A DNA stretch of 49,815 bases from Catajapyx aquilonaris (GCA_000934665.2 JYFJ02002857.1:1-49815), one strand, 5' to 3'. Shown: positions 6,661-40,798, counted from the first letter of the stretch. Numbers and translations: made by a program. The notes: generated from the sequence alone by a model not told the origin.

Positions 6661-7393
6661 ATGCAACTGATCATTCTGTTGGTGTTCTACTCTGCCTTTG
6701 TTGCTGCCGACGATATGGTAGGTCCATTTGACTAACGCTCTTCAGTATGATCATGCGCAATTGTTGCCAGCCAAGCCACTGCTACAGAAGATGGGGCACA
6801 AGTCCACAAGAAAGGGAGGCATTCTTGAGAGTGGAATCGCAGTGTGAACAGACTTTGATAGGAGGAAATCCAGATGTGAGTGTGTCTTTCTTCAACAATG
6901 AATTGGTTTAATTTCATTGAATTTCATTGCAGTGTGTTTTGCCATGCGTTTGGAATCACTTTGGTGTGGTGGGTGCACATGACAGCACTATTTTTGGATT
7001 GGAAATTAACATTATTTTTCCACATTAGTTGGACAACAATGGGAATATTATACCTGAGAGATTCGCAGAGATTTCATCACCAGGAGATGAATATGAAGAG
7101 TTTAGAGCATACGCTACTGACAATCTGATCAAATGTGCTCATGTCGGTGAGTACATTATTTTGTACATATCAACAGATGTACGGTAGGCCTACTGTAAAT
7201 GATGTAATGTTTGTAGTTCAGTCAGATAACAAGTGTGCGAAGTTACTAGGGGAAGTGGAGTGTGCATCTTACATATACACTCAGGTACTGTAATTTAAAT
7301 TAGTCATTTGCTTATAACTACTTGTTTCTGCTAACTATGGGTTGCGCACACTTTTTTTTACAGGAATGCGCACCGTATTACCAGAAAAAATAG
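6661..7393 (+). CDS. 8-Cys OBP-like protein 1 (~137 aa, 6 exons)
   Basis: Exons 6661-6717, 6771-6875, 6933-6968, 7029-7146, 7217-7284 and 7364-7393 give MQLIILLVFYSAFVAADDM|PSHCYRRWGTSPQEREAFLRVESQCEQTLIGGNPD|CVLPCVWNHFGV|LDNNGNIIPERFAEISSPGDEYEEFRAYATDNLIKCAHV|VQSDNKCAKLLGEVECASYIYTQ|ECAPYYQKK*. All introns are GT-AG; AATAAA lies near 7498. Confidence 0.88.
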
Positions 7394-7875
7394 CCGTATG
7401 ATGATGGTGGACGTATCATGAACATATGCTGTTTTGATGAAAAAAAATAGCTATGCGATGTAGTGCACTATTTTGTTCCATAGTCTACTAATAGTGAATA
7501 AATTAATAATATGTAATAGCAGCGACGATACAATTGACACCTGCACAAAAAATACACATGTTTATTAATTTTAAAAATTACACAACTGATGACGTTACAG
7601 TCTTTCAGTGTCATCAGCTTCAAACAGGCGACGGACGTTTTTCGAATGCTCGTTGTTCGAAAGTTGTTAATACAATCAGCAAGAGAAGGAAGTGTAGGGG
7701 GCTAATCAGTTCGAATACTATTATTTTAATCATTTAATTTATTTGCGCTTGGCAAAATGCCAGAGGGAAATAATATTAAGGATATACATTCTTTAAGTAT
7801 TTTTGACAATTGAAAATTTCAAACTCGACTTGTCACAATCCATGTCCATTACCGATGTACAGAGTCATCTGGCGA

Positions 7876-8782
7876 TTACCATCCACATTCCTGTAATGCA
7901 ACAAATACGAGGAGCATTAATAGTATGATCATAAGCTGGCCTATACAGAAAATAAGTTTCATTCAGTTGAAGCCTTCTACTCGTACAGGACTTACAAGCA
8001 TCATTTTTTTCGATGAGCATACTAGAGGTTTCTCGATTTCACATACCCCCCGACCACCACCTTCACCTGCAGTAAGGCAATGATGAATAATTTTCAATTT
8101 TAAAACATACTGCTGTGGGCACTGTTCAAATGTTGAGTACAAACAAACCTGTTTCAATGCAATGGTTAATAGATTCGACCATGAGCTCCTTAGTTTCTTT
8201 GTATTCGTCGCCTGGCATAATGAAGTCCATTATCTCCTGTGGTTTCACGTTTCCATCGCCATCAAGCTACAGCAAGTCAGTATAAGGTAGTATTACTCAC
8301 AAATACCAAGTTCAAATAATGTAATGATGTAGTTCACTGCACCCACACTGTACTACACCCTATACATACCAGGTCCAGCTGCTTTAATACGCACCTCATA
8401 AAATCACACTGAAAAGACAATGTAAATATGGCACTCAGATATTAACGGGGTTATTCCAAATTATGTAGGTCATTAAAATGGGTAAATATGGCACCATATA
8501 TTAGTCCTTGTTCAGTTTGGAAAAATTGACATGCAGGCAATGAAGAGTAGGCATTAGTCAAACTAACCTTATCCCCTTGATCGTGATGGCAGATCATCAT
8601 AGCTGCTGCCACTTCTTCTTCAAGACCTACGAAGAGTTCATCAGGGCGTCGGCAGTGAGCAGGCTGAATAATGAGAAGAAATGTGACAAAATATTTCTCA
8701 ACCATCACTTGAATGGACTTACCACGTCTTGGGCTGCTGCAAAGGCCAAGAGAAGAAGGAGGGTGGCTGCGAAGAACCTCAT
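7876..8782 (-). CDS. 8-Cys OBP-like protein 2
   Basis: MRFFAATLLLLLAFAAAQDV|PAHCRRPDELFVGLEEEVAAAMMICHHDQGDK|CDFMRCVLKQLDL|LDGDGNVKPQEIMDFIMPGDEYKETKELMVESINHCIET|GEGGGRGVCEIEKPLVCSSKKMML|ECGW*; same intron phases as OBP-like 1. Confidence 0.88.
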
Positions 8783-9244
8783 TGTTGCTCTCTGTTGTTC
8801 CAAAGGGGAATGAATAGTATTGTTCAGTATCTGTACTTAAGTAGTATGGATTATCTCTGGGGTTGTGGCAGCAGCTTTTCCTACACACATATGTGAGTGA
8901 TGATTAATATCCATGTCGCAGCTTCCTGGAGTCAGGAGTGTGTTCATATCGAGTTATGCCAGGTGGTGGGAGAACCGCAGAGAAGATTGTGAATATACTG
9001 TAAGCTTGACTGTAAGTAGCCTACACATTTTACGCCGATTCACCGGCATTAATGCCGGTTTCTACATTTTTAAAGATTGGGGATTGTAAGTAATTTGAAA
9101 ATAACAACTCATTCGAACTCATATCTTTGTTCCAATTTCCTGCACTTTTCCCCCACAAATCATTTTGTACACTCCTGCGCGGAAATGCAGGTTGATAATA
9201 TTTTAATCTCGCCATTGCTGGTTGTAACGCCAATATATTATGCA

Positions 9245-9350
9245 CTAGCAGAGGAGCCCGTTCTTCGCCCTGCCTGTTTCGATGGTAATCAACAAAATGT
9301 TGTTGTCATGCAAACAAAAAAACAAAGAAACTTTGCCTTACATACGTAGA
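9245..9350 (-). mobile_element. Non-autonomous mini-Helitron (~106 bp)
   Basis: On the minus strand it starts TCTACGTATG with a TTTG-rich tract and ends GGGCGAAGAACGGGC...CTAG. It sits between A and T. The paralogous flank at ~12141-12160 reads TATTATGCA|TTA without the insert. Confidence 0.65.
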
Positions 9351-9552
9351 TTATCAAAACATGTTAGTAATTAATTAATTAATAGCAGCAAACCCGTGTG
9401 TAGTGTCTGGTACATACGTTATTGAACTTGGTGTCAGTCAACGTACACAGAAGTGATCGAAAGCAGAGGGATAATTGGACAGTGTCGTGCAATAATGGGT
9501 CAACCCACAAAAATGCCAAAATTGAGCCAAGCCCAGGAACATACACCTAAAG

Positions 9553-9775
9553 CAGAGGTTCTTAACCTTTTCGGGCCTCCGCAACCCCTTTGTAGACAAT
9601 AATATGTGGGTCCTTGTCGCACCCCCTGTACCAGGGGTGATTGATAACGTTAATAGTTAGACCAGTTATTAGCTCTTGGTTACATTAAGTCCAGAGGTGC
9701 ACCTTGCTCGCACCCCCAGGGAAGCCACCTCGCACCCCCTGGAGGTGCGCGGGCACCCCAGGCCAAGAACCTCTG
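9553..9775. mobile_element. hAT-type MITE
   Basis: TIRs CAGAGGTTCTTAACCT / AGGCCAAGAACCTCTG (14/16 match). The 8-bp TSD ACCTAAAG / GCCTAAAG has a central TA, and there are internal CGCACCCCC repeats. Confidence 0.8.
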
Positions 9776-10226
9776 GCCTAAAGGATCCTACTTAATTCAG
9801 TTAAAATCACGCAGGTGAAATAATCTGCTTGCTTCTGCCACAAATGACAGAAAAGAACACTGAATTAATTTCACAGGTATGACCCTCAAAGCCCCTTTTC
9901 TCAAAACTGGTCTCATATGTGGGTTGACGCATTATAGCATAACCCTGTCCCATTATCAAATACAGCAGGTACCCGTTTTACACCGCTCCATTTTACGCCG
10001 TTTTACGTTAACGCCGGTTTGAAAATGACTTTATAAAAATTTTAAATTGAAAAATGGTGAAAAATATGACGATAACAACACAATCTGAACATAAGAACAA
10101 CACTTCAACACTTTTGAGTCCAAATGCACGACCATACAATAATGTGTGTTTTTTTGTCTTTCATGGTGCCTTATGGCGGGTTCTATTTATAAATACAGTA
10201 CCGTATTGTTGGTCTCATCGGAACCC

Positions 10227-10500
10227 GGAATGAAGAGTATTGCTCAATATTTGTACTCATGTATAGTGTGCATTATCTCTGGGGTTTCGGTTTTGAATGA
10301 TGGTTAGTGTTCTTTTATTGGGGTGTGTTCATATCGGGATATGAGACTATGAGAGCCAGGAAGAATTTATTGATACCGGTACTGATTTAGCTATGTATAG
10401 ACATGTATAGCTATGTATAGCGAAAAATATGTAGATATCCTGGCACACTGTTACAGTGTTACATAGTAATAGTAATGCGCATTACACTTTGCATTTACAA
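10227..10500 (-). pseudogene. Orphan OBP-like 5' flank with no attached coding exons
   Basis: Close match to the upstream region of OBP-like 5 (14852-15120: GGAATGAATAGTATTGCTCAATAT...GTGTGTTCATATCG...ATCCTGGCACACTGTTACAG), but the adjacent sequence is TE-like rather than exon 1. Confidence 0.6.
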
Positions 10501-10797
10501 TATTATAATAAATAAATATCAGTAGAGGCCTACATACTGTTGCTACCCACAATAATCTGCAATAACCTAAGAATAAAATAGTTTTTCGAATGATCGTTGT
10601 TCAAAATGGAAATTATCAAGGCAATCATCACGAGGAGGCTAATCAGTTTGAATATTATTATTTTAATCATTTAATTTATTTGCACATGACAAAATACCAG
10701 AGCGCACATACTTTACGTATTTTTGACAACTGAAAATTTCAAACTGGACTTGTCGCAATCCATGCCCATTACCGATGTACGGAGTCATCTGGCAATA

Positions 10798-11691
10798 TTA
10801 CCATCCGCATTCCTGTAATGCAACAAATTCGAGGAGTATCAATAGTATGGTCATAAGCTGGCAAGTCGCCTATACAGAAAATAAGTTTCATTCAGTTGAA
10901 ACATTCTACTCGTACAATAAGACTTACAAGCATGATTTTGTTCGCTGAGCATTCCAGAGGTTTCCCGAGTTCACATACCCTCGGACCATCACCTTCACCT
11001 GCAGTAAAGCGATGATGAATAATTTTCCATTTTTAAACATACTGCTGCGGGCACTGTTCAAATGTTGAGTACAAACAAACCTGTTTCCATGCAGTGGGTC
11101 ATAGATTCGACGAGGAACTCCTTGGTCTCTTTGTATTCGTCGCCTGGCATAATGAAGTCCATTGTCTCCTGTGGTTTCAATTTTCCATCGCCATCAAGCT
11201 GCGTATACAGCAAGTCAGTATAAGGTAGTATTACTCACAAATACCAAGTTCAAAAAATGTTATGATATAGTTCACTGCACCCACACTGTACCACACCCTA
11301 TACATACCAGGCCCAGCTGCTTTACTATGCATCTTTCAAGATCACACTGAAAAGACAAGGTAAATATGACACCATAATTATGAGTCCAATATGTATTTGT
11401 TCAGTTTGCAAAAATTGACATGCAGGCAATGAAGAGTCAGCATATTATTTTAACAAGACATAGTCACACTAACCCTATTATCCCCTTGATCTTTGCAGAT
11501 ATTCATAGCTGCTGCCAATTCTTCTGTATTGCCTTCGAAGGGTTGATCAGGGCGTCGGCAGTGAGCAGGCTGAATAATGAGAAGACGAAATGTGACAAAA
11601 GATTTCTCAACAATCACTTGAATGGACTTACCACGTCTTGGGCTGCTGCAAAGGCCAAGAGAAGGGCAAGGGTGGCTGCCAAGAACCTCAT
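10798..11691 (-). CDS. 8-Cys OBP-like protein 3
   Basis: MRFLAATLALLLAFAAAQDV|PAHCRRPDQPFEGNTEELAAAMNICKDQGDNR|CDLERCIVKQLGL|LDGDGKLKPQETMDFIMPGDEYKETKEFLVESMTHCMET|GEGDGPRVCELGKPLECSANKIML|ECGW*. Confidence 0.88.
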
Positions 11692-12631
11692 TGTTGCTCT
11701 CAAGTTGTTCCAAAGGGGAATGAATAGTATTGCTCAATAAGTAGTGTGGATTATCTGTGGGGTTGTGGCAGCAGCTTTTCCTATAGATACATGTGTGAGT
11801 GACGATTAGTGTCCATGTCGCAGCTTCCTGGAGTCTGGAGTGTGTTCATATCGAGTTATGCAATAATTGATAATTATACCGTTGGGAGGACCTATACGCA
11901 TAGAAGATTGTGCATAATATACTGTATGCGTAGTACACCTATTTTACGCCGATTCACATTAATGCCGGTTTCCACATTTTAAAAAATTGGGGATTGTAAA
12001 TAATTGGAAAATAACAACACATTCGAAAAATTAATCTTGTTCCAATTTCCTGCACTTTTTCGTCGCAAGTCATTTTGTACACTCCTGCACGGAAATGCAG
12101 GTTGATAATATTTTAATCCCGCCATTGCTGGTTGTAACGTCAATATATTATGCATTAAGATTGGAAAATCAAGAGCGCGTCATTATAGTAAACTTTTTCT
12201 TATTCTTTCATCGTGTAGGGGTCGACCACTCCTTCAGAAAATCCATGGTGTTGCATGATGAGGAATTTTACATGAGGTCTTCAGGTACGCAGTGTGAATT
12301 GTGGCATTCGGCGAAAAATATATAGATATCTTGTCACACTGTTTCATAATAGTAATGCGGATTACATTCTGAACTTATACAATATTATTTCGGATGGGTA
12401 ATACATGAAGTCCATATGAGGCTCATGGGGACTATATAGGAGGGAAGGAAGTGTTTCAGGCTAATCAATCAGAAGACAATGTTATCGTAATCATTTAATT
12501 TATTTTCACTCGACAAAATACTAGAGCGAAATTAAGGATATAATATACATCCTTTAAGTATTTTTGACAATATTAAAAATTTTAAATCTCCATGTCGCAT
12601 TCCATAATTACCCGCATGTATAATCATCTGA

Positions 12632-12888
12632 CTAGTGATATGGTGCGCATTCCTGTAACACAACAAATGCGAGAGGCATTAATGATGTAATACATAAGTT
12701 GGCAAATAATAATTTCATAAGTGCTCTTCAGTAAGTCTTACACTGCCGATTTTTTCCGACAGGCATTCTAGAGGTTTCCCCAACTCACATCCTTCAGGAG
12801 CATCACCTTCATCTGCAGTGAAGCAATGATTTTTGTGTGCACTGTTCAAAGTTTGAGTACAAACTAACCTGTTTCTATGCAATGAGTG
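12632..12888 (-). pseudogene. Truncated OBP-like 4 (only end of exon 4, exons 5-6)
   Basis: ..THCIET|DEGDAPEGCELGKPLECLSEKIGS|ECAPYH*. It is nearly identical to the 3' part of OBP-like 6; similarity stops abruptly at ~12888 and exons 1-3 are absent. Confidence 0.8.
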
Positions 12889-13004
12889 TGAGAATTGATA
12901 ATTAACTTATACTGGTGTGGGACAACCTATACGCATAGAAGATTGTGAATATACTGTAGTGCCTATTTCGCCACATTGGTATCGACTGTTGGCAGGTATA
13001 AAAA

Positions 13005-13942: not shown

Positions 13943-14826
13943 TTACCGCCATCCGCATTCCTGTGTAGAGGAGCATTAATAGTATGGTCATAAGCTGGCA
14001 AGTAGCCTACAGAAAATAAGTTTCATTGAGTTGAAGCATTCTACAGTAAGGCTTACACTGATGATTTTTTTCAATGCGCATTCTAGAGGTTTCAGGAACT
14101 CACATGCCCCCGGACCATCACCTTCACCTGAAGTAAACCAATGATGAGTAATTTTCCATTTTATAACATATTGCTATGGGCACTGTTCAAGAGTATAGTA
14201 CAAACTAACCTGTTTCTATGCAGCGGGTCATAGATTCGACGATGAACTCTCTGGTCTCTTTGTATTCTTCTCCTGGCAGGAGGAAGTCCAATGTCTCCTG
14301 TGGTTTTATGTTTCCATCGTCATCAAGCTACGTATACAGCAAGGCAGTAAGGTATTACACACAAAATACTTCAACTAATGATAGCCTATAGTTCACTTTG
14401 GTTCACTTCCCCCATGCTGTACAGTGTACACCATAATACATACTAGATCCAGGACCTCCATTATGCATCTTTCAACATCACACTGAAAAGACAAAGTAAA
14501 TATGACATCATAATTATTAGTCTAATATATTTTTGTTGAGTTTGCAAAATTGCTGTGAAGAGTCAGCATTTATTTAGTCTACATATTATTTTAACAAGAC
14601 AGAGTCAAACTAACCCTATACCCTTGATCCTGGCAGATATTCTTAGCTGCTGCCAGTTCTTCTTCATTTCCAACGAAGGATTCGTGAGGGTGTCGGCAGT
14701 GAGCAGGCTGAAAAATGAGAAGAAATATGACAAAAGTTTTCGCAACAATCACTTGAATCGATTCACCTTTTCTTCGGCTGCTGCAAAGGCCAAGAGAAGA
14801 AGGAGGGTGGCTGCGAAGAACCTCAT
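13943..14826 (-). CDS. 8-Cys OBP-like protein 5
   Basis: MRFFAATLLLLLAFAAAEEK|PAHCRHPHESFVGNEEELAAAKNICQDQGYR|CDVERCIMEVLDL|LDDDGNIKPQETLDFLLPGEEYKETREFIVESMTRCIET|GEGDGPGACEFLKPLECALKKIIS|ECGWR*. Confidence 0.88.
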
Positions 14827-15353: not shown

Positions 15354-16147
15354 CTAGTCATAATATTGTCTGCATTCCTGTAACACAACAAATGCGAGAG
15401 GCATTAGTGATGTAATACAGAAGCTGGCAAGTTCATTTGAAAATAATAATTCTCTCTACAGTAAGTCTTACACTGCTGATTTTATCCGATACGCATTCTA
15501 GAGGTTTCCCCAACTCACATCCTTCAGGAGCATCACCTTCATCTGCAGTGAAGCAATGATTTGTGTGTGCACTGGTTCAAAGTTTGAGTACAAACTAACC
15601 TGTTTCTATGCAATGAGTGAATGTTTCGACCAGAAACTCCTTGGCCTCTTCGTGACCTGCTTCGGGCAGAAAGAAGTCCACTGTCTCCTTTGGTTTTATG
15701 TTTCCATTATCATCAAGCTATGTACAGCAACGGAGTAAAACATTAAACATAACTGTTATAATGATGATTTGTTCACTGCTCCCACAGAGTGCATCCTATA
15801 CATACCAAGTCTAACACCTCGAGAATGCATCTGGTATAATCACACTGAAAATACAAATACGGTGTCGTAGTTAGCCCAATACACTGTATTTTTGTTCAGT
15901 TTGCAAATATATGTTACAACTCAAAATCAAACAAACCTCATTCTCTTGATCCTTGCAGATCATATGCGTTGCTTCCATTTCTCCTAGCACGCTCTCGGAT
16001 GGTTCAGGGAATTGGCAGTGAGCAGGCTGAATAATGAGAAGAAATGTGACAAAATATTTCTCAACAATCATACTTGAATGGACTTACCACGTCTTGGGCT
16101 TCTGCAAAGGCCAAGAGAATGGCAAGGGTGGCTGCGAAGAACCTCAT
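15354..16147 (-). CDS. 8-Cys OBP-like protein 6
   Basis: MRFFAATLAILLAFAEAQDV|PAHCQFPEPSESVLGEMEATHMICKDQENE|CDYTRCILEVLDL|LDDNGNIKPKETVDFFLPEAGHEEAKEFLVETFTHCIET|DEGDAPEGCELGKPLECVSDKISS|ECRQYYD*. Confidence 0.88.
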
Positions 16148-16545: not shown

Positions 16546-18387
16546 TTACGCAACACTTGAGCAGGATGAGGTGAATCGATGATCAGTTGTCTGAGACTGT
16601 TCAGGCTCCTGATCTTGTTCAGTCTGATTTCCATGGGAGTCACACTGTTCTGATGATTTCTTCCGTTTTGAACACAGTTCTTGACAAACAGAATTGTGAC
16701 CATTCCTGCACGAAAAGACACCAGAATTGCGTAACACTTCACACAATAAGCATATGAGAGACATGCAAGATCCTGACAGAAGAAGAACGAAAGGCACTAT
16801 CATATGGCTTAATTTCATAGGTTTGTAGCTGCTCAATGGCGCAGTGATCTTCCCAGATTTGAACCACTTCACCTTCTGAATCATGCTCTTCTGCTCGTTC
16901 ACCCTCTTCACGTCGTAGTCGTTCAGACCAGTGTCTACGTAGATCAACACTCCTTTGTTGACTGAATCGTATATGACCGAATGAAGCTCGGTGCTGAGGC
17001 TGACCATCAGGATTGGCAGGTCAGTCTCCACAACATGGAGTTGGTTCTGTTTCAGTTTGTTCTCAGGGTCATCGACAGTCAGGCCGAACCAAGGTGTCTC
17101 CTGTACGAAACATGCGTACTTATCAGTCAGTACTTTGCTGACACATTCCTTCTGGTAGTCCATGTAATCTTGAGGAAGGTCATACAAGTTGACTTTAAGA
17201 GCAATTTCTTTGTGGATTTCGCTCTCTGTTAGGTTCACAAAGGAGTCGAAGTACCACTTACCCCAACCGCCCCAAGTGTACCGCGTGTTTATTAGGTCCT
17301 GGAGGGTGTCCAGATTGGACATGGGTTTGTCCATGAACACTCCGATCATGTCAGAGGTGATGATGGTGGACATCAGGAGGCAGAAGAAGAGGTAGAAACA
17401 GAAGAGCCAGGTGGTAGGAGTGGTCAGCTTCTGGATGTTGACCGATTGGACAATCATTGCTGGAAAGGTCATGGTGGTCAGGATTGTTGTCCAGGACTGT
17501 CCTTTCAGCAGACAGAACATGATGGTGGTGATGATAACGAGTGATACCAATATGCATACAAAGGCTTGTGGCGAAACAGGTTCCCACACCATGTGAGGGA
17601 GGAACTTCTTGGTGACCATCAACATCTTGTCCATCCTGTACGGTTGGGTATAACTGCGGTTGGTGTCCAACCGCATTGTTTCCAACTGATGGATCCGGTA
17701 TCTTCCGTTCGTGTCACCAATCCAATACTTGTAGTTCAGATATTGCATAAGAAATATGTTCACTCCCACATTGTGATTCCATACCGAAATGTTCCGTCCG
17801 TTCATGTCCTTTGTTGTGTCCACAAATAGCGATTCATGAGGTGACCTGACCGTCCTTTTCCTGATCGTATAATGTCCATTGTTGCAAAAGTAGCATGGTG
17901 TGATTATCCTGAATGAAATTGTGTCACCTTGTGTTAAGTGATCGATCCCTGCTCTGTACTTTGTCTTTGATGATTCCCAGTCGATACAACTGTCAGCTGA
18001 TCCGTTTGTTACGTAAAACATGTGGTAATCGCCAGTTACTCGCCACTTACTTGTTCTGTAAAATTGGTCCAATACTTTTCCGCAATTACTTCGGTGCAAG
18101 TAATAGAGGGCCAGGACGCACTGCCCTGATCTTTGAAACACATTGTTGGTAATGTTTGGTAAGTGGTCAGTAGATATCATAACGACCGTATTGTTGCACA
18201 TTATCGGCAGTTTTTCAAGACGACCCGGATAGTGTTCGCTGTCGTAAATAATTGCTAAAGAACAGTTAGGCAGCAGGTTCATGGTTGCAGACACTACTTC
18301 AGATAACATGTCTGAATCACTATGGATGGACAGGATGGTCACCTCTGCCGCGTTTGCAACGTAAATTAGTAAAAGTAGAAATTTCAT
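16546..18387 (-). CDS. Divergent ionotropic receptor IR-B (intronless, 613 aa)
   Basis: Signal peptide, PCYFCNNG, D.TKDMNGR.I.V, YTQPY, M1 after WEPVS, M2 ..TSDMIGVF...LDTLQDL, DTGL, PMKLSHMIVPFVLLLSG...CE. Confidence 0.88.
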   Translation of the reverse strand: MKFLLLLIYVANAAEVTILSIHSDSDMLSEVVSATMNLLPNCSLAIIYDSEHYPGRLEKLPIMCNNTVVMISTDHLPNITNNVFQRSGQCVLALYYLHRSNCGKVLDQFYRTSKWRVTGDYHMFYVTNGSADSCIDWESSKTKYRAGIDHLTQGDTISFRIITPCYFCNNGHYTIRKRTVRSPHESLFVDTTKDMNGRNISVWNHNVGVNIFLMQYLNYKYWIGDTNGRYRIHQLETMRLDTNRSYTQPYRMDKMLMVTKKFLPHMVWEPVSPQAFVCILVSLVIITTIMFCLLKGQSWTTILTTMTFPAMIVQSVNIQKLTTPTTWLFCFYLFFCLLMSTIITSDMIGVFMDKPMSNLDTLQDLINTRYTWGGWGKWYFDSFVNLTESEIHKEIALKVNLYDLPQDYMDYQKECVSKVLTDKYACFVQETPWFGLTVDDPENKLKQNQLHVVETDLPILMVSLSTELHSVIYDSVNKGVLIYVDTGLNDYDVKRVNEQKSMIQKVKWFKSGKITAPLSSYKPMKLSHMIVPFVLLLSGSCMSLICLLCEVLRNSGVFSCRNGHNSVCQELCSKRKKSSEQCDSHGNQTEQDQEPEQSQTTDHRFTSSCSSVA

Positions 18388-18732
18388 TGTTGTATGATCA
18401 ACCTGGTACAGACATTATTGTTGATGGCAGAGTATCAATGAGAGCAACCTACCTGCAGCACAAATGTAGTGTACTGATGAGGCAACATTACTTGAATATT
18501 GATTTGCCATCAGGGAACGAGTGACATTAAGGCGCCTCATCGCGTGACCCAATAATAGTTATCGACAGTTAGAAGGACACCCATACATGCTGACAGAACT
18601 GATCATTATTTTTCTACGCTAATGATGTGTTTTAAAATGGTGTTAAATTGGGCTATGTTGCAACTGCAGTTTTATTATGCTGGCTTATGACAAAGAATAT
18701 AATATTCTGAAACAATAGCAATAATATTCTTC

Positions 18733-19507
18733 TTAGTCGAGATACTGCCCGCATTCCTGTAAATATTAATTGAAAATTATTTGGTGGAAGTTGGTAACAA
18801 TATATCTATTTGTTAAAGTAGAATGAAATGTACCTGAATATATGCTGCAATTTCGCAATCTTGTATTGCATTCACGTACTCACAAGTGGTTTCTTCCAAT
18901 GAAATTCCAGCTGAAAAAAATGGAATTATGGATTGGTATATAATGTTTGCTATGTGTTATGCATATAACCAAATTACCAGATGCGGAACACTTGCGAACA
19001 TTTTCAGCAATAAATTCCCTGGTATCTTCAAACCCTTCACTTGGAATTACGAACTTGGCAAATTCTTCAGGAATTAAGGCGCCTTGGTTATCAAACTGAA
19101 AAATTGTTTAATTAGACAGATAATTTTACTGATAATAATTGAAGGGTGCATACCGCTTCTAGTTCTTTTTCAAGTACACAGGCATCCATACACTGAAAAT
19201 ATGTTAGTTAATTTTTTACATTGTCATGAAACCATTATATTGCACCATATTGTATTAAGTGTATTGGACTACTCACATGGAGTTCGACCTTTTCCTTGGT
19301 GCATCTATGCTCACTGTTGTATAAAAGTCCATACTCATCTTCAGCCATGTCTATATCTGGCAAGCGGCAATGACTTGGCTTTGATGCCTTGAATTTTAAT
19401 TTTGAGTAATACATAACAATATGCTGTGAAACTAACAAATGAGAGCTTACCATATCTCCAGTGATCGTTGTCAACAATGCAAAGAGGCAAAAAAGTGTCC
19501 CCAACAT
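18733..19507 (-). CDS. 8-Cys OBP-like protein 7
   Basis: MLGTLFCLFALLTTITGDM|(ASK)PSHCRLPDIDMAEDEYGLLYNSEHRCTKEKVELH|CMDACVLEKELEA|FDNQGALIPEEFAKFVIPSEGFEDTREFIAENVRKCSAS|AGISLEETTCEYVNAIQDCEIAAYIQ|ECGQYLD*; the exon 2 acceptor is ambiguous by 9 nt. Confidence 0.85.
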
Positions 19508-19871: not shown

Positions 19872-20649
19872 CTATTCGCATGCCTAAAAAGATTACAATA
19901 AATTAAAGATGTAGTAATTAATAAAATTTGTGAAGATGTTGAGAAAAACTGTTGCAAGAATATTTTAGCTCCTTTTGTTCAAATTCAATATTTTCACAAG
20001 AGGCATACCTCATACAAAGCTTGGAGTCCACACCACATGTGAGCAAGAGCCCCAGAGCATCTAGGATATTCTGGCATGGTCTGAGCTGAATTAGGAAACA
20101 CATGTCACTCATTTGAACAAGTTGTACATAATTATGGAGCATCCAAACTTACGTCCATTATGTTTGCAATCAGCAATTAGTTCTTCCAAGTAATCCTTTC
20201 CCTCATCAAATCCTTGCTCGGGGTAAAGAAAGTCCACATACTCACGCTCTTTCAAACCACCATTGTCGTCAATCTGAAACATTACAACAATGGATGTTAA
20301 TGAGTTATTATGTCCTTCTCGGGCATACCAGATCCATTGAGTTGAGGACACATTCTGCTGTTTCACACTGCAAATGTACAAGCCCATTATTACAAAATTG
20401 TTGACTTATTGTTTGACAGTAGTCATACCTGACCTCCAGCACCTCCGCAGAAGTTCATTCGAGCATGTCGTAGTTTATCAGTGGCTGCCTGCATATCATC
20501 TCCAGTTGGAAAGTTGCAGTAGCCTGGATCCTATAGTATAATAGGTTAGTATTCAACCTAAGAATCAAAATGAGGGGACTTACCGCATAAGTGGCTGCCA
20601 AACTTGCAAGTAACAGAGCTGAAGTCAGGAGGAACATGGCTGCTGACAT
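19872..20649 (-). CDS. 8-Cys OBP-like protein 8
   Basis: MSAAMFLLTSALLLASLAATYA|DPGYCNFPTGDDMQAATDKLRHARMNFCGGAGGQ|CETAECVLNSMDL|IDDNGGLKEREYVDFLYPEQGFDEGKDYLEELIADCKHNG|PQTMPEYPRCSGALAHMWCGLQALYE|ACE*. Confidence 0.87.
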
Positions 20650-30502: not shown

Positions 30503-31349
30503 TTACGAGCATGCCTGAACAAAGAATTGCCATATGAAAGGCAATTAAATAGATTATAAAACTTAATACATAAAAATTTAAAAAAATAGTTGAGGTCTTG
30601 TCTTACCCTTTCCAAATCATGAAACGCACACATCATGTCACCAGGAGCCCCTGTGCACTTTATCCCTCTATTACCTATAAGAGAATAACATATTGACATG
30701 AACTATTTTAAACCATATTCAACTTACCGTTTCTGCATTCGGTGATAATGCCCGCCATATATTCCTTTGCTTCATCATATCCTTGATCGGGATAAATCAG
30801 GTCTACAAATTCTGTCTTTAAATGGCCATCTTCGACCTGATGAAAGATGACCGTAGTGTTATAGGAAAACAAAAGCCTCTTGTATTATACATACCAGATT
30901 CGCCGCATTGAGTGTACATGCTGCCGTTTCACACTGTAAATATTACATATCTTATTTATTATTTTGAACAGTATTTTGGTGTCAAATGTCGAAAAATGTT
31001 TTGGACACATAAATATTTAGAACTGTTCTTACCTCGCCTCCAGCATTTGTGCAGTGGGTCAAACGGGCATTTGTCAGGGTGACACGGGCTCTGTTCAGTT
31101 CTTCTCCTGATGGAAAGTTGCAGTAGGGTCGCCTCTACACAACAATGAAATGGTAAACTGTTAGTATGAATTGTCACAATCTATACATATTTCAAAACAA
31201 TTCACAAGTTTAAATTGCTCCTTATCAGGAAGTCAAAATCATGTGGAATTGCACAGAAGTTTAACAATGGAAGGTTTTCTCACCCTATCGGAGGCTGCGA
31301 AACCTGCAAGAAGCAGCAGTGAAGCCAGGAGAATCATTGTTGCTGACAT
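30503..31349 (-). CDS. 8-Cys OBP-like protein 9
   Basis: MSATMILLASLLLLAGFAASDR|RRPYCNFPSGEELNRARVTLTNARLTHCTNAGGE|CETAACTLNAANL|VEDGHLKTEFVDLIYPDQGYDEAKEYMAGIITECRN|GNRGIKCTGAPGDMMCAFHDLER|ACS*. Confidence 0.87.
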
Positions 31350-32266: not shown

Positions 32267-33132
32267 TTATGAGCATGCCTGAAAAAGAGCGAAAATATTT
32301 TAGCATATTATTAATATACTGAAAGTTAAAATAATTAGTGGATCCCATGCCTTCTCTTACCCTTTGCAAAGCATGAAACGCACAAATCATGTCACCAGGA
32401 GCCCCTGTGCATATCGACACTCTCTGGCCTAAAAGAGAATAACATATCGAAATGCATGAACTATTATACTCAACTCAACACTTACTGTTTCGACATTCGG
32501 TGATCCTGTCTGCCAAATATGCTTTTGCTTCGTCATATCCTTCATCGGGATAGATAATGTCCACGAACTCTGCCTTTAAGTGGCCATCGTCGACCTGAAA
32601 AATGAAAACCGTGGTATTATAGGAAAACAAAAGCGTCTTGTACAGTACTACATACCATATCCAACGCGTTGAATGTGCATGTTGCAGTTTCACACTGTAA
32701 ACAATACAGAAGTTATTATCTCGTATAGTACTGCACTTCTTCTTACAGCGATTGATGTCAAAAAATGTTTCGGACAAATGGTACACATCATGTCCATTTT
32801 GTTTCATATTTTTACCTCGCCTCCAGCATTTGTGCAGTAGGTCAATCTAGCATTGCTGAGAGTGTTCGTGGCTCTGTCCAATTCTTCTCCTTGTGGAAAC
32901 TTACAGTAGGCTGGATCCTACATAACAATGAAGTACAACACATGAAATTATAATCGCGAAGTGTGGGTATGGTTTCAAAACAAATTGCTTCAAGTGCTCA
33001 TTAGTAAGAAGTCAAAATTATGTATAATTGAACACTGATTAGAGTAACAATGGAAGGTTTTCTTACCTCATCGGATGCTGCGAAACCTGCAAGAAGCAAC
33101 AGTGAAGCCAGGAGAATCATTGTTGCTGACAT
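32267..33132 (-). CDS. 8-Cys OBP-like protein 10
   Basis: MSATMILLASLLLLAGFAASDE|DPAYCKFPQGEELDRATNTLSNARLTYCTNAGGE|CETATCTFNALDM|VDDGHLKAEFVDIIYPDEGYDEAKAYLADRITECRN|SQRVSICTGAPGDMICAFHALQR|ACS*. Confidence 0.87.
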
Positions 33133-33733: not shown

Positions 33734-33881
33734 ACATCCTATCGTAATTTGAAAGATATGCAATTTACTGATGTAATCGTAGAAAGAGCAGGAAACTGAT
33801 AGGCCATTAATAATTTGCACTAATTTTATTCATTCTAAAATCGTGTCAGGACATCAAGGGAAGATCCAGCCAATCGCATTG

Positions 33882-34917
33882 TTACTCTTCATCAGAGACA
33901 TTGTTGCACTCCTGAAAAAGTAATTGAAAATTTAGACTCAATTTGTTTATCTATAAGAAAGTGCATTTTACATTCACATAGCATACTTTGCAAAATTTAT
34001 TTATAATATTTTCTGGTAGAATTGAATACAAATAAAAATTTATTGAATTTGATCATTTTTTTTCAGATGCTGATCTCCACATACGGTACCTGATTTCTAA
34101 AATCCATTGCACAATCAGAGGCAGCGAGAGGTTGATAAGGACACCAATCATCGTAGTCTTTCAAATAGTTTCTCAACAATTCGGCTGAGAATAACCAACA
34201 ATGTTACTTTGCACCATTTATGTCCAAGTATTTATAACTTACGATCGCTTTGACATTCGATGATTTTTTCTGCCAAATAGTTCTTAGTTGCATCAAATTC
34301 TTCACCATCAGGAAACATGAAGTTGACAAACTTACGCGGATTCAGGTTCTCAACATCATCAAGCTGAAACCGGTTCCATTGATGAGACAATGCTTGGTAC
34401 GACGTCACATGTACTTACCAGTCCCAGCTCATTAATGGTGCAATGGGTCGAAGCACACTGTAAAATTTATAATATAAAGTTTAACTAGTTATCTGGTGTA
34501 ATTATAACATTACTGTACCTGATGGGCAGCCAAATATTTACAAACTGTTGATTGAACTTGCTGCATTTGGCTAGTTACTACATTCATGTGCTCTGGAGTC
34601 GTATATCTGCAGAAGTCCTATAGGAATAACAGTGTAAGTATGTAAGGGGTAAGTCTGGGGTAAGTAAGTGGTAAGTAAGGGGTAAGTAAGGGGTAAGTAA
34701 GGGGTAAGTAAGTGGTAAGTCAGGGGTAAGTCAGGGGTAAGTCAGGGGTAAGTAAGTGGTAAGTAAGTGGTAAGTCAGGGGTAAGTCAGGGGTAAGTCAG
34801 GGAATAACAGTGAATATTTTTAAAATATACTTGCAGCCTACTTACTTCATCATCAGCTGAAGTCAAACTTGAAATAAGAAATATTGGAGCCAACAAGAGG
34901 ACCATTGTTGTGGCCAT
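33882..34917 (-). CDS. 8-Cys OBP-like protein 11
   Basis: MATTMVLLLAPIFLISSLTSADDE|DFCRYTTPEHMNVVTSQMQQVQSTVCKYLAAHQ|CASTHCTINELGL|LDDVENLNPRKFVNFMFPDGEEFDATKNYLAEKIIECQSD|PELLRNYLKDYDDWCPYQPLAASDCAMDFRNQ|ECNNVSDEE*. Confidence 0.86.
34635..34800. repeat. (GGGGTAAGTCA/GTGGTAAGTAA)n minisatellite in OBP-like 11 intron 1
   Basis: 11-bp degenerate unit, flanked by the direct repeat GGAATAACAGTG (34623-34634 and 34801-34812). Confidence 0.9.
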
Positions 34918-35194: not shown

Positions 35195-37012
35195 TTACTC
35201 AATGTCCGTTACATGAATCTCTGTCGTATCAGTTGCAGGCATACAATCACGTTCGTTGCTATCAGCACAATCCTTAATGCTGTGTCTTTTTATCACTTCT
35301 AATATTAAGAAACATATAGACAGGCAACAACCAGAGAATAGGAAGAAAAAGGCTGACTTAAGAATAGCCAGAGTCATAACTTTTGGCCCCGTTTCTTCCA
35401 TAATAATTTTCCCAGAGTTGTACCACTTTCTTCTCTGAAGGTCCTGCTTCTGCTTTGCTAACACATGCTCGTCATGATCATGCAAACCAGAATCCACATA
35501 TGTTTGTAGACCTCTCTTTATAGACTCGTAGGTCACTGAGTGTGTCTCAGTGCTGATACCCACAATCAGAGTGGGTAGGTCTGACTTAGCAACGTAGAGA
35601 AGTTCCTGTCGATACTCGTTGTCAGGGTCGTCCAGGGTGTACCACGGTGTCTGTTGGGCCAAACAGGCGTACTTTCCGTCTAGTGTCTTCAGCACACATG
35701 TCTTCAGGAAGTCCCAGTATTGCAGTTCGAATATCTCGACCTCTGATGCAATCTTTCTGATGACTGGACTTTCGGTTAGGTTCACGAACTTGTCGTAATA
35801 CCAGTCCTTACCGAAGCTGCCCCATTTGTACTGCATGTCCACTAGGTCTTTTAGTGACTCCAGGTTCTTCGAAGTGGAGTCCAGGAACACTCCGACCATG
35901 TTTGAGGTGAAGAAGGTGGACACCAACATGCAGAAGTAGACGTACAGAAAGAAGAGGCAGTTTGTTGATGATGTGAAGTTGCGAGTGTCCACTGATTCGT
36001 CAAACAGTACTGGTATTACATAGTTTGTCAGAATCATGTACCATGACTTGTGATGTCCGATTCTACCAGGTTTTGTTCTGGATAGGAAGTAAATGGCTGT
36101 TGTCACCATGCATATTGAGACAATGAGGCTGAGAAAAGCATTCCATGTGAACGGCACCAGAAGAAGACCCTTGGACATCTTGGGAGGAAACTTCTTGGTG
36201 ATGATGAGCATACCGTCGATTCTGTATGGGTTTGTGTAGCTACAGTTGCTGTCCAGTACCATCGTTTCTACCTGACAAATCCAGTACATGTGTTTAGGGA
36301 CAGTGTTAGTAATATCTACCCAGGTGTAGTTGAGATGCTCGGCTAGCCACTTATTCATAAGATCTTTACGATTACACACTTGGATAGTTCTTCTGTGCCA
36401 GTTCTTTGTGGTGTCTGGAAACAACTCGTCAACAAATGAGGTGACAGTGGTGTGTGTGACTGTGTAGGTACCGTTGTCACAAAAGTAGCATGGTGATAGC
36501 ATCCTAAGTGCCAAACCATTTTCACTTGTGATGTTGGCAATACCCAATCGGTGTTTCAACGTGTGAGATTCCCATCCAATACACTCTTCGATTGATCCAT
36601 TTTTAATGTGGAATATGTGGTAATCACGTGTGCCTCTCCAAGGCCGTAGTGTTACTAAATACTGTTGAACTAAACTGTGGTAAGAAGTGATCGTGGAGTG
36701 ATACAGCACCACGAAGCACTGTCCCGATTGTTGAATCACCAATGTGTTTCTCACCTTCTTTGTGTTGTTTGAAGCGATCACCACTGGTGTTTTGACCATT
36801 TTTGGCAGTCCTTCCAGTTCATAATCCAGAAACTTATTGTCGTGGAGAATAGCAAGTGAGCAGTCCTTCACTTGGTTATTCTCTGCCATTATCCTTGACA
36901 CTGCTTCTGACAACAGTTCAGTTTCTGTCTGATAAGCATTGATCTTGATTGCACTAATTTTGTTGAAAATTATGCTGATTATTAGACAAGTCACTATGTA
37001 CGCCATTTGCAT
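35195..37012 (-). CDS. Divergent ionotropic receptor IR-C (intronless, ~605 aa), paralog of IR-B
   Basis: Signal peptide, PCYFCDNG, LFPDTTKNWHRRTIQV, YTNPY, LLVPFTWNAF, FTSNMVGVF...LESLKDL, DSGL and a final TM ending FLILE; colinear with IR-B. Confidence 0.88.
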   Translation of the reverse strand: MQMAYIVTCLIISIIFNKISAIKINAYQTETELLSEAVSRIMAENNQVKDCSLAILHDNKFLDYELEGLPKMVKTPVVIASNNTKKVRNTLVIQQSGQCFVVLYHSTITSYHSLVQQYLVTLRPWRGTRDYHIFHIKNGSIEECIGWESHTLKHRLGIANITSENGLALRMLSPCYFCDNGTYTVTHTTVTSFVDELFPDTTKNWHRRTIQVCNRKDLMNKWLAEHLNYTWVDITNTVPKHMYWICQVETMVLDSNCSYTNPYRIDGMLIITKKFPPKMSKGLLLVPFTWNAFLSLIVSICMVTTAIYFLSRTKPGRIGHHKSWYMILTNYVIPVLFDESVDTRNFTSSTNCLFFLYVYFCMLVSTFFTSNMVGVFLDSTSKNLESLKDLVDMQYKWGSFGKDWYYDKFVNLTESPVIRKIASEVEIFELQYWDFLKTCVLKTLDGKYACLAQQTPWYTLDDPDNEYRQELLYVAKSDLPTLIVGISTETHSVTYESIKRGLQTYVDSGLHDHDEHVLAKQKQDLQRRKWYNSGKIIMEETGPKVMTLAILKSAFFFLFSGCCLSICFLILEVIKRHSIKDCADSNERDCMPATDTTEIHVTDIE

Positions 37013-37463
37013 CAACTTACATGAAAGTAGTTCCGGTTAGAGCTAACAAGTCTGATCGTGATGTAAATCACTGACAAACTGACACGTCCTGTACTCATAA
37101 TATCGACATGTTGGTTGCGGAATAGCATTGATTTATCTTGAGTAATGGCCAGGTTTCTAGGAAGAGCTGAAGAAATATTGCGGCGAACAGCTCTAAGCCG
37201 AAGTGTAAATAAGAGAAGAGGATGGCCTGTCAATAAGTTGTCAACTGGCTTTTGATACACTCCTCACCCACTTTGTTCTGGTTTTGTTGCGACAACTCAT
37301 CGGGTGTTACAAAAGATGTTGAGCCGAGGTAATAAGACAAGGACAACACTACCGTTGACCACTTTATTACAGACAGGGCTAAATATATTAGTCAACCTAC
37401 ATACTATAGCTATGTGATGCTATTATGGCATAGTTGCGGTTTCTCTATGTTACATGTAGTAAG

Positions 37464-38251
37464 CTAGTCCATTGCAGAGTCCATGTACTCAGAACACTCC
37501 TGAAATATGATTCGAGTTGAATATTTGATTGCTCTCATTAGTAAGTCAGATTGTTAAATACCTGAGTGTAAGCCCTCCATTCGCAGTCGATCACTTTTGT
37601 CGCTTTCTTGCAGACGTCATCGCCATGAGAAGCAGCTGGGTGTAGGTAATATATAGCAACATTAGTCTAATCCATGGTTTGTGACAGATATTTCAAATAT
37701 AGAGAAAAATCATTCTATGTGAAGATAATGACGTACCTCCCAGGCACCGTTGAGTGTTGGCAGCCACTAGTTCCCTGAAGTTCTCATATTTATCATTAGG
37801 CATTACTATTTTTGCGTATTCTTCTGGTATTACATTATCATCATAGCCCATCTGTAAGAGATTAGAGAAACACATCATCCCATAATGTGTCTACCCTATA
37901 TGAATAATGGTGTGAAATTGTCCTACCGCTCCGTAACGGTCCAACACACATGCATCGAGGCACTGGAAAATAATCCAAACAAATTAATACACTAATATGT
38001 AGACTGAGCAAAATGGTTACTTACATTTGGTTCAATCCCAGCATGCTGGCATATGTGCTCATTATTTACCCACATGTCGAATGCACTATTGCCTACTTCT
38101 CTGGGAAATGTGCAGTAGCTTTCCGTCTGTGGTATTACAAGATTGAACATACCATTTATATGTACTATACTTGCACTGTACCTACATCATCAGCTGCTGC
38201 ACCAACAGCGAAGAACAGACAGAAGACCAGAATCATACCAGTAGGATTCAT
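37464..38251 (-). CDS. 8-Cys OBP-like protein 12
   Basis: MNPTGMILVFCLFFAVGAAADD|TESYCTFPREVGNSAFDMWVNNEHICQHAGIEPN|CLDACVLDRYGA|MGYDDNVIPEEYAKIVMPNDKYENFRELVAANTQRCLG|AASHGDDVCKKATKVIDCEWRAYTQ|ECSEYMDSAMD*. Confidence 0.86.
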
Positions 38252-38701
38252 TGCAGGACACTACTATAAATACAAGTCGGTTCAATAACTAGCTGGAACT
38301 ACACATTTGCGCACTAATATATGCTAAAATATATCACTAAATTGGGCTCTCATTTCCTGGCTTGGGTCATTAAAACTTTGCTATACATAATTAATATCAT
38401 TTGCATTAGATTGATGTTGATGAAAACGGAAATTGATCAGATTCTATGCAAAACAGTGTTAATTGTCAAAACTATCGCAGCTTTAAATTAGACACTATCC
38501 AGGTGGAGCTACCGGATATCCTCTAAAAACTGAGTACATATCTGTTGTTATTTCACTGAATAATAATTATATATAATTAATGGCTAGCGTTACATTTCAC
38601 ATTTTATGTAAGTCCTGTAATTGGTCATTCATGCAGTTAGGATGGTGCAATGTAAACAATGAGTAAGGTTCATGCAGTTGTTTATTCAGATCTTTCAGTG
38701 C

Positions 38702-39404
38702 TCACATGAAGCTACCGCATATCTGTAAAAATGAAGTTACACATGTACGACTCATACTAAAAATTACAATGTCACATAACTTATTACCTCTACAAAAGTG
38801 TCCATTGCACACACGATGACTTCTATTGGTCGAACTGTGTCTCCACATTCATCTTCAGAGCCATTTGCCTCTGCAATTGTTCGCATTTTAACATGAGAAC
38901 ACCATTTAACTTAAGCCAAACTCACCTTCTTGAGCACAGGTGGCAAGTGTCTCTGTTGCAAACTCTTTGAAGTCATCATAACCTTCGCCTGGGATTAGGA
39001 AGTCAATATAGGCTTCTGGTTTCAGTTGGCCTTCATCATCAACCTGCCTCGGAACATTATTACTCACACTGTATGTCCCCAAAAAAATGGTCACCAGCTT
39101 ACCAATTGGAGTTCCTGGAATACGCATGCCTGAGCAGCACACTGAAAAGACACAATTATTAGAACATGTGACACAGTATATGATTTAGTTTCAAACCGCA
39201 TCTGGCAGATCCTGACACTTGACACCGGCTTCATAGATGTGCATTCTAGATGCTTCAGATAGGCCTTCAGGGTAGTGGCAGAAATCTGGCTGAAATGTTT
39301 TTTCCATTAAATGGCAACAATCATTAAACATTTGAATCACTTCTTACAATGTCTTCTGCAGCCACAACAGCTGAGAAAACAAGCAACGACACGAGGAGGA
39401 TCAT
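38702..39404 (-). CDS. 8-Cys OBP-like protein 13
   Basis: MILLVSLLVFSAVVAAEDI|PDFCHYPEGLSEASRMHIYEAGVKCQDLPDA|CAAQACVFQELQL|VDDEGQLKPEAYIDFLIPGEGYDDFKEFATETLATCAQE|EANGSEDECGDTVRPIEVIVCAMDTFVE|ICGSFM*. Confidence 0.86.
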
Positions 39405-39840
39405 TGTCGACAATGTGATGAGCGTCTTCTTCATCCAAATGATGCACTATTGACCTATTTTGGTTGCACCATTTCCGCATATAAGTGATTGCATTTTAGG
39501 TGCAGGAAATTATATAATTTGTTTGCTCATTTGCTTACGGAAATGCGTCTCTCAGTGAGGTCATCCGTATATTTCCCTAATAATAGAGAGATATTAGCAG
39601 CCCATGTTGTGTACACTAGTGGTTGTGCAGTAGTGATGTAGATATTGCACTCATAAATAGAGTACAGAGTGACACTATTTGCAGGATGACTAATTCAGGA
39701 ACTCAAAATATTTTTCACTTTAATTAAATCACCACTATGCAAGTTTACAAAAAATCATGTAACTAGTGACATTCTACACATTGTTGAGTGTTGCTATAAG
39801 CAGCTCCAATTTTCATTGCAGTCACTGTTTCTTCTGCAAC

Positions 39841-40798
39841 TTATATTCTGACGCATGCCTGAAAGTAAGGTAAAAGGTAATGTTACATTGGAGTGCAACA
39901 TACTGTACAACAAGCCGCACCTGAAATCTGGCTTCTATTGCACAATCCAATGTAGACACTGGTCTTGGACATGCCGATGTGGGTGAGATGTCTGCATAGG
40001 CTGTAGAGTAGTTAAAAATTAATTGTGATTTTAGGAAAGACAATGCATTGACACAAAGTGAATTAGCAGTCACTTACGGTCAAGTTTGCATTTGGCAATT
40101 TTCTCGGCAAAAAAGGCTCTTGCTTCATCATAGCCGTCCTTAGGATACATTATATCCACAGCCTTATCTATTAATAAGTCTCCATCCTCACCAACCTGAA
40201 GTGCAATGCAATGCAAACAATTACAAGTGTTTGTATTACATTAATTTCAACGGAAGTTAACATTCATACATACCAGGTGAAGTGTTTCCATCACACATTT
40301 TGTGACCTTACACTGTAATGATAACATTAATAAACTAAAGTAAAATGCAGTTGTCATGCATAAATCTTGTACGTAAAGCATAGGTGAACTAGTGTGAAAT
40401 GTTTTCTTTTGTCATAAAATGTCACAGTAATTTGACCTTATATTTGGTAGAAACTCGACACATTTCTTTAGCTGCAACCATTGCTCCAGCTTGATCTTCT
40501 TGCTCAGACTGAGAAGGTACGGCACAACGGCTAGACTAAAATATAAAAAATAGTGACCAAAAAAGTACAGGATATGCAAAATATCAGATTGTTAATAGCA
40601 GATCAATATTATGCTGTAAAAGAGATATAAAGTAATCAGAAATATCTTACATGCAGCCGCCTGTACTGAAGCTAATGAATAATTTCATAATGAACTGATG
40701 AGTAATGAGTGTCAAGCTATTTTACTTACAGCATAACCTGCTACCAAATTTGCAGTAATAAGCATGGAAGCCAAAATTCTGATGGCTGTTGCCTTCAT
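39841..40798 (-). CDS. 8-Cys OBP-like protein 14 (possible extra 15-nt microexon)
   Basis: MKATAIRILASMLITANLVAGYA|(YRRLH)|SSRCAVPSQSEQEDQAGAMVAAKEMCRVSTKYK|CKVTKCVMETLHL|VGEDGDLLIDKAVDIMYPKDGYDEARAFFAEKIAKCKLD|PYADISPTSACPRPVSTLDCAIEARFQ|ACVRI*. Confidence 0.85.

Follow-up and report, generated by a model that had tools for sequence, protein, structure and literature searches.

Six-exon genes for secreted eight-cysteine proteins in a chemoreceptor cluster of Catajapyx aquilonaris, candidate divergent odorant-binding proteins

A 49,815-nt stretch of DNA from Catajapyx aquilonaris (GCA_000934665.2, JYFJ02002857.1:1-49815), referred to here as the window, carries a series of small cysteine-bearing exons between positions 6661 and 40798. 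In an original prediction these exons were assigned to a family of odorant-binding proteins (OBPs). This raises the question of whether they make up genuine genes and whether the encoded proteins belong with the OBPs. It was found that the exons form 13 genuine genes, accompanied by one truncated copy. It is moderately probable that they are divergent members of the insect-type OBP superfamily, produced by a lineage-specific tandem expansion and encoding small, secreted, acidic, mostly helical proteins. This explanation rests on the cysteine framework, gene structure, physical properties and genomic context of the family, and not on profile or fold evidence.

Thirteen intact genes and a truncated copy

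The gene search started from a hand reading of the minus strand at 18500-19700; exons bounded by AG and GT and containing the expected cysteine patterns were then chained by script. Thirteen complete chains of six exons were rebuilt in 6661-40798, one on the plus strand and 12 on the minus strand, which corresponds to 13 copies in 34 kb. The outermost ATG codons of the chains are at 6661 and 40798, the same limits as given in the original prediction. All of the spliced models (13/13) are free of stop codons and encode 131-151 residues, and the intron phases are 0,0,0,1,0 in every gene. The 65 introns are 53-228 nt in length (median 75), with GT donors and an AG end in 65/65. In the gene read by hand (G07), GT-AG introns of 58-84 nt and eight cysteines beyond the signal exon were found. 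Intron 4 of G11 was first modelled with a GC donor; a canonical GTAAGT lies six bases further on, and the exon end was set at 34243. Exon 1 encodes 19-29 mainly hydrophobic residues starting from Met in all 13 genes and is signal-like as judged by eye. An AATAAA or ATTAAA hexamer is located 16-178 nt past the stop codon of each gene; in the background, such hexamers occur 1.43 times per kb on each strand. The same chain search detected 13 loci in the real window, none in two reversed strands and none in 10 first-order Markov random sequences. Searching the window with the 13 proteins (tblastn) revealed no pieces beyond the models and the truncated copy. The window has a G+C content of ~40%, and its genes are of the eukaryotic, intron-bearing kind. 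The 13 chains are genuine genes, whose cysteine framework and structure are confirmed. All of the 13 intact genes and the single truncated gene that had been predicted were thereby recovered, the truncated one by direct reading, and the predicted intron phases, together with a Met-initiated, signal-like first exon, were seen in every intact copy.

The 13 intact genes share the cysteine spacing C-X19-22-C-X6-10-C-X3/4-C-X40-43-C-X8-17-C-X7-11-C-X8-C. The first gap had been predicted as 20-22 and was widened by G06, which has 19 residues at this position; all other gaps are as originally described. This includes the last gap of X8, present in 13/13, and the prevalence of C-X4-C, found in 10 of the 13 proteins, with C-X3-C in the other three (G01, G07, and G12). 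The first cysteine belongs to a C..P motif in 11/13, a strict turn of the form [LVIFM]D..G.[LIV] occurs in 8/13, and the protein ends 1-9 residues past the last cysteine. Despite only 16-34% identity between subfamilies, all eight cysteines and one proline are invariant across the copies. Without exon 1, the products are 109-127 residues long, with masses of 11.9-14.7 kDa and pI values of 4.05-5.40. A rough Chou-Fasman estimate, averaged across the aligned copies, gave 46% helix and 20% strand.

Two subfamilies and a looser group can be distinguished. Subfamily A contains four intact genes, all on the minus strand, with 55-73% identity: G02 (7876..8782; exons 8723-8782, 8568-8663, 8370-8408, 8149-8266, 7996-8066, and 7876-7890; 132 residues, C-X4-C), G03 (10798..11691; exons 11632-11691, 11474-11569, 11308-11346, 11081-11198, 10928-10998, and 10798-10812; 132 residues), G05 (13943..14826; exons 14767-14826, 14615-14707, 14444-14482, 14210-14327, 14057-14127, and 13943-13960; 132 residues), and G06 (15354..16147; exons 16088-16147, 15937-16026, 15806-15844, 15600-15717, 15472-15542, and 15354-15377; 133 residues). 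The closest pair in this subfamily is G02-G03, with 73% identity. The truncated copy G04 (12632..12908, minus strand) also belongs here. It has lost its 5' part; what is left is the tail of exon 4 together with exons 5 (12742-12812) and 6 (12632-12652), with tblastn matches at 12742-12831 and 12867-12908. Its exon-5 region is 95% identical to the counterpart in G06. Direct reading upstream showed exons 1-3 to be absent and the sequence to be unrelated from ~12909; in place of the 5' part lie ~740 nt of unrelated sequence (12909-13650).

Subfamily B (44-76% identity) is likewise encoded on the minus strand. It is made up of G08 (19872..20649; exons 20584-20649, 20429-20530, 20329-20367, 20153-20273, 20009-20085, and 19872-19883; 138 residues), G09 (30503..31349; exons 31284-31349, 31033-31134, 30895-30933, 30728-30836, 30607-30674, and 30503-30514; 131 residues), and G10 (32267..33132; exons 33067-33132, 32816-32917, 32656-32694, 32486-32594, 32361-32428, and 32267-32278; 131 residues). 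G09 and G10 are 76% identical to each other, and G08 is 44-47% identical to either.

The three C-X3-C proteins form a loose group of 24-34% identity. They are encoded by G01, the only gene on the plus strand (6661..7393; exons 6661-6717, 6771-6875, 6933-6965, 7029-7146, 7217-7284, and 7364-7393; 136 residues), and on the minus strand by G07 (18733..19507; exons 19451-19507, 19277-19387, 19154-19192, 18978-19095, 18834-18910, and 18733-18756; 141 residues) and G12 (37464..38251; exons 38186-38251, 38025-38126, 37927-37962, 37737-37851, 37562-37635, and 37464-37499; 142 residues). G07 and G12 are mutual closest relatives (34%). The remaining minus-strand genes stand singly: G11 (33882..34917; exons 34846-34917, 34519-34617, 34419-34457, 34243-34363, 34090-34184, and 33882-33911; 151 residues), G13 (38702..39434; exons 39348-39434, 39197-39289, 39103-39141, 38926-39043, 38788-38870, and 38702-38722; 146 residues), and G14 (39841..40798; exons 40730-40798, 40437-40535, 40274-40312, 40078-40195, 39921-40000, and 39841-39858; 140 residues). 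An alternative 3' end for G13 would need a 43-nt intron and was judged less likely, and G14 has two weak donors (GTCAAA and GTGCGG).

Comparison with odorant-binding proteins

Many insect OBPs contain a hydrophobic-D-x-x-G-x-hydrophobic turn about 8 residues past C3, followed by a proline about 16 residues later, and the family described here is alike in this respect. Published cysteine patterns (PMC2808328) were tried on every ordered subset of cysteines in each protein. The classic six-cysteine patterns given in that source for Coleoptera, Diptera, Hemiptera, and Hymenoptera are fitted by three of the 13 proteins (G01, G07, and G12), and its Lepidoptera pattern by one. All 13 fit the Hemiptera pattern once X4 is admitted besides X3 for C2-C3 and the C-terminal gaps are given the family's own, wider ranges (C4-C5 X8-17 and C5-C6 X7-11, or X17-29 and then X8; C5-X8-C6 can be assigned to either of the last two cysteine pairs). 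The reading favoured from the spacings is that the family would keep the six classic positions and add one cysteine between C1 and C2 and another eight residues past the sixth.

OBPs have been divided into Classic, Minus-C, and Plus-C classes, described as having six, four, and eight cysteines, respectively (PMC6303780; PMC6175461). The Classic framework (PF01395), as described in the sources used, is C1...C2-X3-C3-X36-46-C4-X8-14-C5-X8-C6 and is found in full in G01, G07, and G12. Compared with Classic OBPs, the family has two added cysteines, one 6-10 residues ahead of C2 and one exactly 8 past the sixth. It has in common with them a signal peptide, an acidic mature protein (~110-125 residues in Classic OBPs), a predicted helical character, and an arrangement in tandem arrays with fast turnover. 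The gene structure is also shared, as a phase-0 intron is described as parting the signal exon from the remainder of insect OBP genes (PMC6175461), and such an intron lies right behind the signal exon in 13/13. In addition, each of the 13 products has the secreted (by eye), acidic character and the length of ~110-150 residues expected of an OBP.

A number of observations weigh against OBP membership. The most constant spacing among OBPs, C2-X3-C3, is replaced by X4 in 10/13. Six cysteines with both C2-X3-C3 and C5-X8-C6 at the published spacings are consequently not a property of the family as a whole, C-X8-C being present in 13/13. The proline that stands right after C6 in Plus-C OBPs follows neither the seventh nor the eighth cysteine in any copy (0/13 each). 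Moreover, the Plus-C motif with its C4a and C6a, given as C1 X8-41 C2 X3 C3 X39-47 C4 X17-29 C4a X9 C5 X8 C6 X9-11 C6a (PMC2808328), is fitted by 0/13. Membership of this class was therefore rejected, and the Plus-C likeness suggested in the original prediction was not supported. Eight cysteines, a long C3-C4 gap (40-43 here) and a terminal C-X8-C are common to both; however, the family lacks the proline after C6 and a C6a at X9-11, its additional N-terminal cysteine falls between C1 and C2, and its proteins end soon after the last cysteine. Zhou's narrower general OBP motif, quoted with a C3-C4 gap of X21-38, is fitted by 0/13 because this gap is 40-43 here, and the dipteran eight-cysteine pattern is also fitted by none, in the form in which it is given.

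Two further groups were compared. The CSP (OS-D) pattern, C1-X6-8-C2-X18-19-C3-X2-C4 as listed in Table 2 of PMC2808328, was rejected since no gap of X18-19 followed by X2 occurs among the spacings of the family. OBP-like genes have been described, a few per genome and with a Minus-C-like pattern, from chelicerates and a centipede, with none reported in that description from crustacean proteomes (PMC5381604). Compared by description, these proteins are similarly small, secreted, outside the well-studied insect classes, and recognized by cysteine pattern and weak similarity. They lack the two cysteines that are missing from Minus-C OBPs, whereas the present family has the six classic positions plus two and amounts to 13 copies. 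None of the Classic, Minus-C, Plus-C, or published OBP-like classes is matched exactly.

Searches at the profile and structure level gave no match to an OBP. The Pfam, PDB and Atlas tests were made with single exons of 31-40 residues and are weak tests for this reason. In Pfam, 11 translations of 32-40 residues, nine from exon 4 and two from exon 2, matched neither PBP_GOBP (PF01395) nor an EF-hand model at E<=1, the scan returning one unrelated weak match (E 0.28). With a 13-row profile of exon 4, 25 PDB chains were obtained at E<=10 and none was an OBP. Eight of the 25 were calmodulin chains and two were other calcium-binding chains; the best matches were calmodulin EF-hand loops (E 0.09-0.6, the lowest value being 0.09), aligned over the first 17 positions. 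The exon-2 profile returned one irrelevant row from the PDB and no OBP, and exon 4 of G07, G12, and G01 searched singly gave zero, one irrelevant, and zero rows, again without an OBP. In the Atlas, the clusters nearest to exon 4 of G02 were EF-hand clusters (PF00036, PF13405, and PF13499 in eight of the 10 rows shown), with scores of 0.90-0.91 and 102-136 shared features, which is lead-grade only. The D.DG turn had been put forward as an OBP signature; the PDB profile search and the Atlas score it as EF-hand-like instead.

Further searches were made in large sequence collections. The exon-4 profile was searched with HMMER against 1.84 billion representatives and gave one match at E<=0.001. This match was judged spurious, being a 3083-residue bacterial Big_1/CHAT protein in which positions 3-21 of the profile were matched in six repeats. 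A word-based search among longer proteins with exon 4 of G07 (44 residues including five flanking codons) yielded no candidate. In metagenome contigs, four subfamily A rows gave 595 pattern matches, none of which was confirmed by tblastn, and Rfam had no matches in the window. The large libraries are evidently poor in arthropod proteins, so their silence on the family says little; even the amine oxidase open reading frame (ORF) of the window found only one distant JGI protein in them, at 28% identity. A full-text search of the main texts of 8.1 million papers plus preprints, using six peptide motifs of the family and of receptors encoded nearby (gustatory receptors and the ionotropic receptor IR2), retrieved no papers. 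Supplements, the usual place of sequences, lie outside this search, and for this reason the family cannot be called unpublished.

Chemoreceptor genes around the family

Apart from one amine oxidase gene, all of the non-family genes called between G01 and G14 are chemoreceptors, and the array is part of a mixed chemoreceptor cluster. Two intronless ORFs are of the ionotropic receptor (IR) type. IR1 (16549..18414, minus strand, 622 residues) lies between G06 and G07 and is IR-like with a sub-threshold Pfam Lig_chan match (E 0.017). IR2 (35198..37036, minus strand, 613 residues) lies between G11 and G12, also with a sub-threshold Lig_chan match (1.2e-4). In the Atlas, the first matches of IR2 were arthropod ionotropic receptor clusters (0.98, 231-234 shared features), which also marks the host as an arthropod. 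IR1 and IR2 are 40% identical. On the minus strand, G07 is located directly upstream of IR1 (16549-19507) and G12 directly upstream of IR2 (35198-38251), and both of these putative carriers are of the C-X3-C type. This paired order, together with the mutual likeness of its members, suggests that a unit of carrier and receptor was duplicated long ago.

Four gustatory receptor (GR) genes of the 7tm_7 family are found on the plus strand between G08 and G09. They have long first exons at 20951-22111, 22933-23952, 24692-25822, and 28551-29558, with Pfam E-values of 2.6e-11, 1e-15, 1.3e-17, and 4e-5, respectively. Three of these genes (20925-26213) follow one another in almost perfect tandem, repeating every ~1.84-1.87 kb with segments that are 82-98% identical, while the fourth (28551-30143) is more distant and lies past the amine oxidase gene. 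The first exons run uninterrupted for 335-386 codons, unlike most Grs of Daphnia pulex, for which a mid-gene phase-0 intron is given in 49/58 (PMC2680840). The flavin amine oxidase gene is situated amid the GR genes (26502-28330, plus strand; Pfam Amino_oxidase 5.9e-35 and 1.7e-20). Its first ORF has a hydrophobic, signal-like start followed by a GAGMSG dinucleotide-binding motif.

Several other features were noted in the window. A third long ORF on the minus strand (1445-3199, 584 codons) resembles the IR ORFs and lies outside the family interval in a stretch of 52% G+C. On the same strand, 41671-42255 and 43902-44663 are paralogous ORFs of 194 and 253 codons with long identical stretches near their C-termini, and at 44935-47745 several ORFs contain leucine-rich repeat (LRR)-like text (LxxLxLxxNxI), which suggests that a gene for an LRR protein lies downstream of the array. 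Short coding-looking minisatellites with repeated HDHTITRS and LTPxLPLTY are present at 29435-29756 and 34571-34741 (minus strand), the second within intron 1 of G11. The only ambiguous base of the window (N, at 42447) adjoins a run of proline codons.

The OBP class proposed in the original prediction is partly supported. The classic spacings in 3/13 and, when relaxed, in all 13 speak for it, and the phase-0 intron and the GR and IR surroundings fit a chemosensory carrier; Plus-C kinship is not supported, and the single-exon profile searches gave no PBP_GOBP match.

Divergence, competing explanations, and meaning

By the method of Nei and Gojobori, the ratio of nonsynonymous to synonymous rates (dN/dS) was 0.44-0.99 in the seven pairs with an estimable dS, the highest value being that of G02-G03. 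The exons of this pair are 87.6% alike and its introns 93.9%, and throughout subfamily A it is the exons that differ more. In the mature region of G02-G03, 38.8 nonsynonymous changes in 266 sites (0.146) compare with 27 in the 379 sites of the intron core (0.071; Fisher p=0.0023, one of seven pairs, uncorrected). Nonsynonymous change also nominally exceeds intron change in G02-G06 and G03-G06 (p about 0.03). Three other pairs show no difference between the two rates, and in G09-G10 the nonsynonymous rate (0.167) is below that of the introns (0.246), which indicates purifying selection. Leaving aside the short last exon, the coding exon that has changed least within subfamily A (7876-16147) is the signal exon. 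The mature protein of this subfamily looks to be under accelerated change. Young duplicates of the family diversify their amino acids fast with the cysteine scaffold retained, a combination that is in keeping with proteins that bind ligands or interact in other ways and that excludes simple decay.

As divergent OBPs, the proteins would be expected to function as follows. Exon 1 would supply a signal peptide which is cleaved, and the mature protein of 109-127 residues may fold into a compact helical bundle locked by its eight cysteines as four disulfides. It would then act as an extracellular carrier or buffer of small, mostly hydrophobic ligands. Linkage to the gustatory and intronless ionotropic receptor genes makes the lymph of contact-chemosensory sensilla the probable site of action, although such linkage is no proof of co-expression. 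The genes, their structure, the cysteine framework, the acidity, the receptor surroundings, and the fast divergence of young duplicates are observations; the OBP fold, disulfide pairing, ligand binding, and expression site are inferred.

The divergence data bear on two of the alternatives. It is conceivable, if unlikely, that the proteins have an OBP fold or a similar one but serve outside chemosensation as fast-evolving secreted effectors (salivary, seminal, venom, or immune), in which case the linkage to receptors would be coincidental and diversification would stem from contact with other organisms or with the other sex. Many OBPs are described as acting outside chemosensation (PMC6303780; PMC6175461), and the excess of exon over intron change in subfamily A, the amino-acid replacement at or above the neutral rate in young duplicates such as G02-G03, and the range of dN/dS values are all consistent with such a role. 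However, rapid turnover is usual in chemosensory binding proteins too, G09-G10 is under purifying selection, and the genes interspersed with the family are, bar one, chemoreceptors. A dN/dS near 1 in G02-G03 (0.99) and the presence of one truncated copy could also be taken as signs that the array consists of ORFs chained by chance or of pseudogenes in decay. This is very improbable, as the reading frames remain open across six exons in 13/13 with all 65 splice sites kept, the eight cysteines and downstream poly(A) signals persist at 16-34% identity between subfamilies, no chains were found in the controls, and exons diverging faster than introns are not the outcome of neutral decay.

A different alternative places the family outside the OBPs altogether, as secreted, disulfide-stabilized helix-loop-helix proteins which are EF-hand-derived or convergent and may bind calcium through a D-x-D-G loop at the exon 3/4 junction. 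Along with the calcium-binding chains and EF-hand clusters among the PDB and Atlas matches, it can be noted that G02, G03, G05, G06, and G08 agree with five of the six canonical loop positions scored, and that subfamily A and G08 share with EF-hand loops a D-x-[DN]-G-x-[ILV]-x-x-x-E sequence between predicted helices. Yet all of these scores are sub-significant, the shared features in the Atlas fall below the 170 expected of true family members, and the nine exon-4 translations gave no match to the Pfam EF-hand models at E<=1. The six positions scored call for oxygen ligands at 1, 3, 5, and 12, for Gly at 6, and for a hydrophobic side chain at 8; they do not occur together in any copy, and G09, G10, and G11 match only one or two. 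Canonical EF-hand membership was rejected; a D, N, or S ligand is found at position 1 in 0/13, all copies having a hydrophobic residue there. In 8/13 the motif has decayed, and the proteins are secreted and disulfide-rich, unlike EF-hand proteins. A canonical calcium site is thus not a feature of the family, as far as the loop sequences indicate, with subfamily A coming close to one. The OBP-type cysteine spacing would also be left unexplained, and this alternative is improbable, to a greater degree than an effector role. A separate and bold view would regard the C-X4-C four-disulfide framework with its EF-hand-like loop as a carrier class of novel structure.

Among the components of arthropod chemoreception, soluble carriers are understood least. 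The identity of the host affects what a divergent OBP family would mean in this context, and the finding would be far more interesting if the host were a non-hexapod or the fold were new. If the host is an ordinary insect, the family would be a further lineage-specific expansion of OBPs whose cysteine pattern is unusual. One account gives OBPs as reported from hexapods only (PMC5850775). It is doubtful, but would be of consequence, that a non-hexapod host with true OBP-fold proteins is at hand, which would make this the first large OBP-type expansion outside Hexapoda and one that is clustered with GR and IR genes. In that case insect-type OBPs would have arisen before the hexapods, tied first to contact or aquatic chemoreception, and these genes would make their origin directly testable. 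For the family itself, the presence of a few members with the classic framework among a majority with C-X4-C shows that the scaffold can drift under retained selection, and from its position amid the GR genes and intronless IR genes, a pairing of carriers with taste-type receptors can be proposed and tested.

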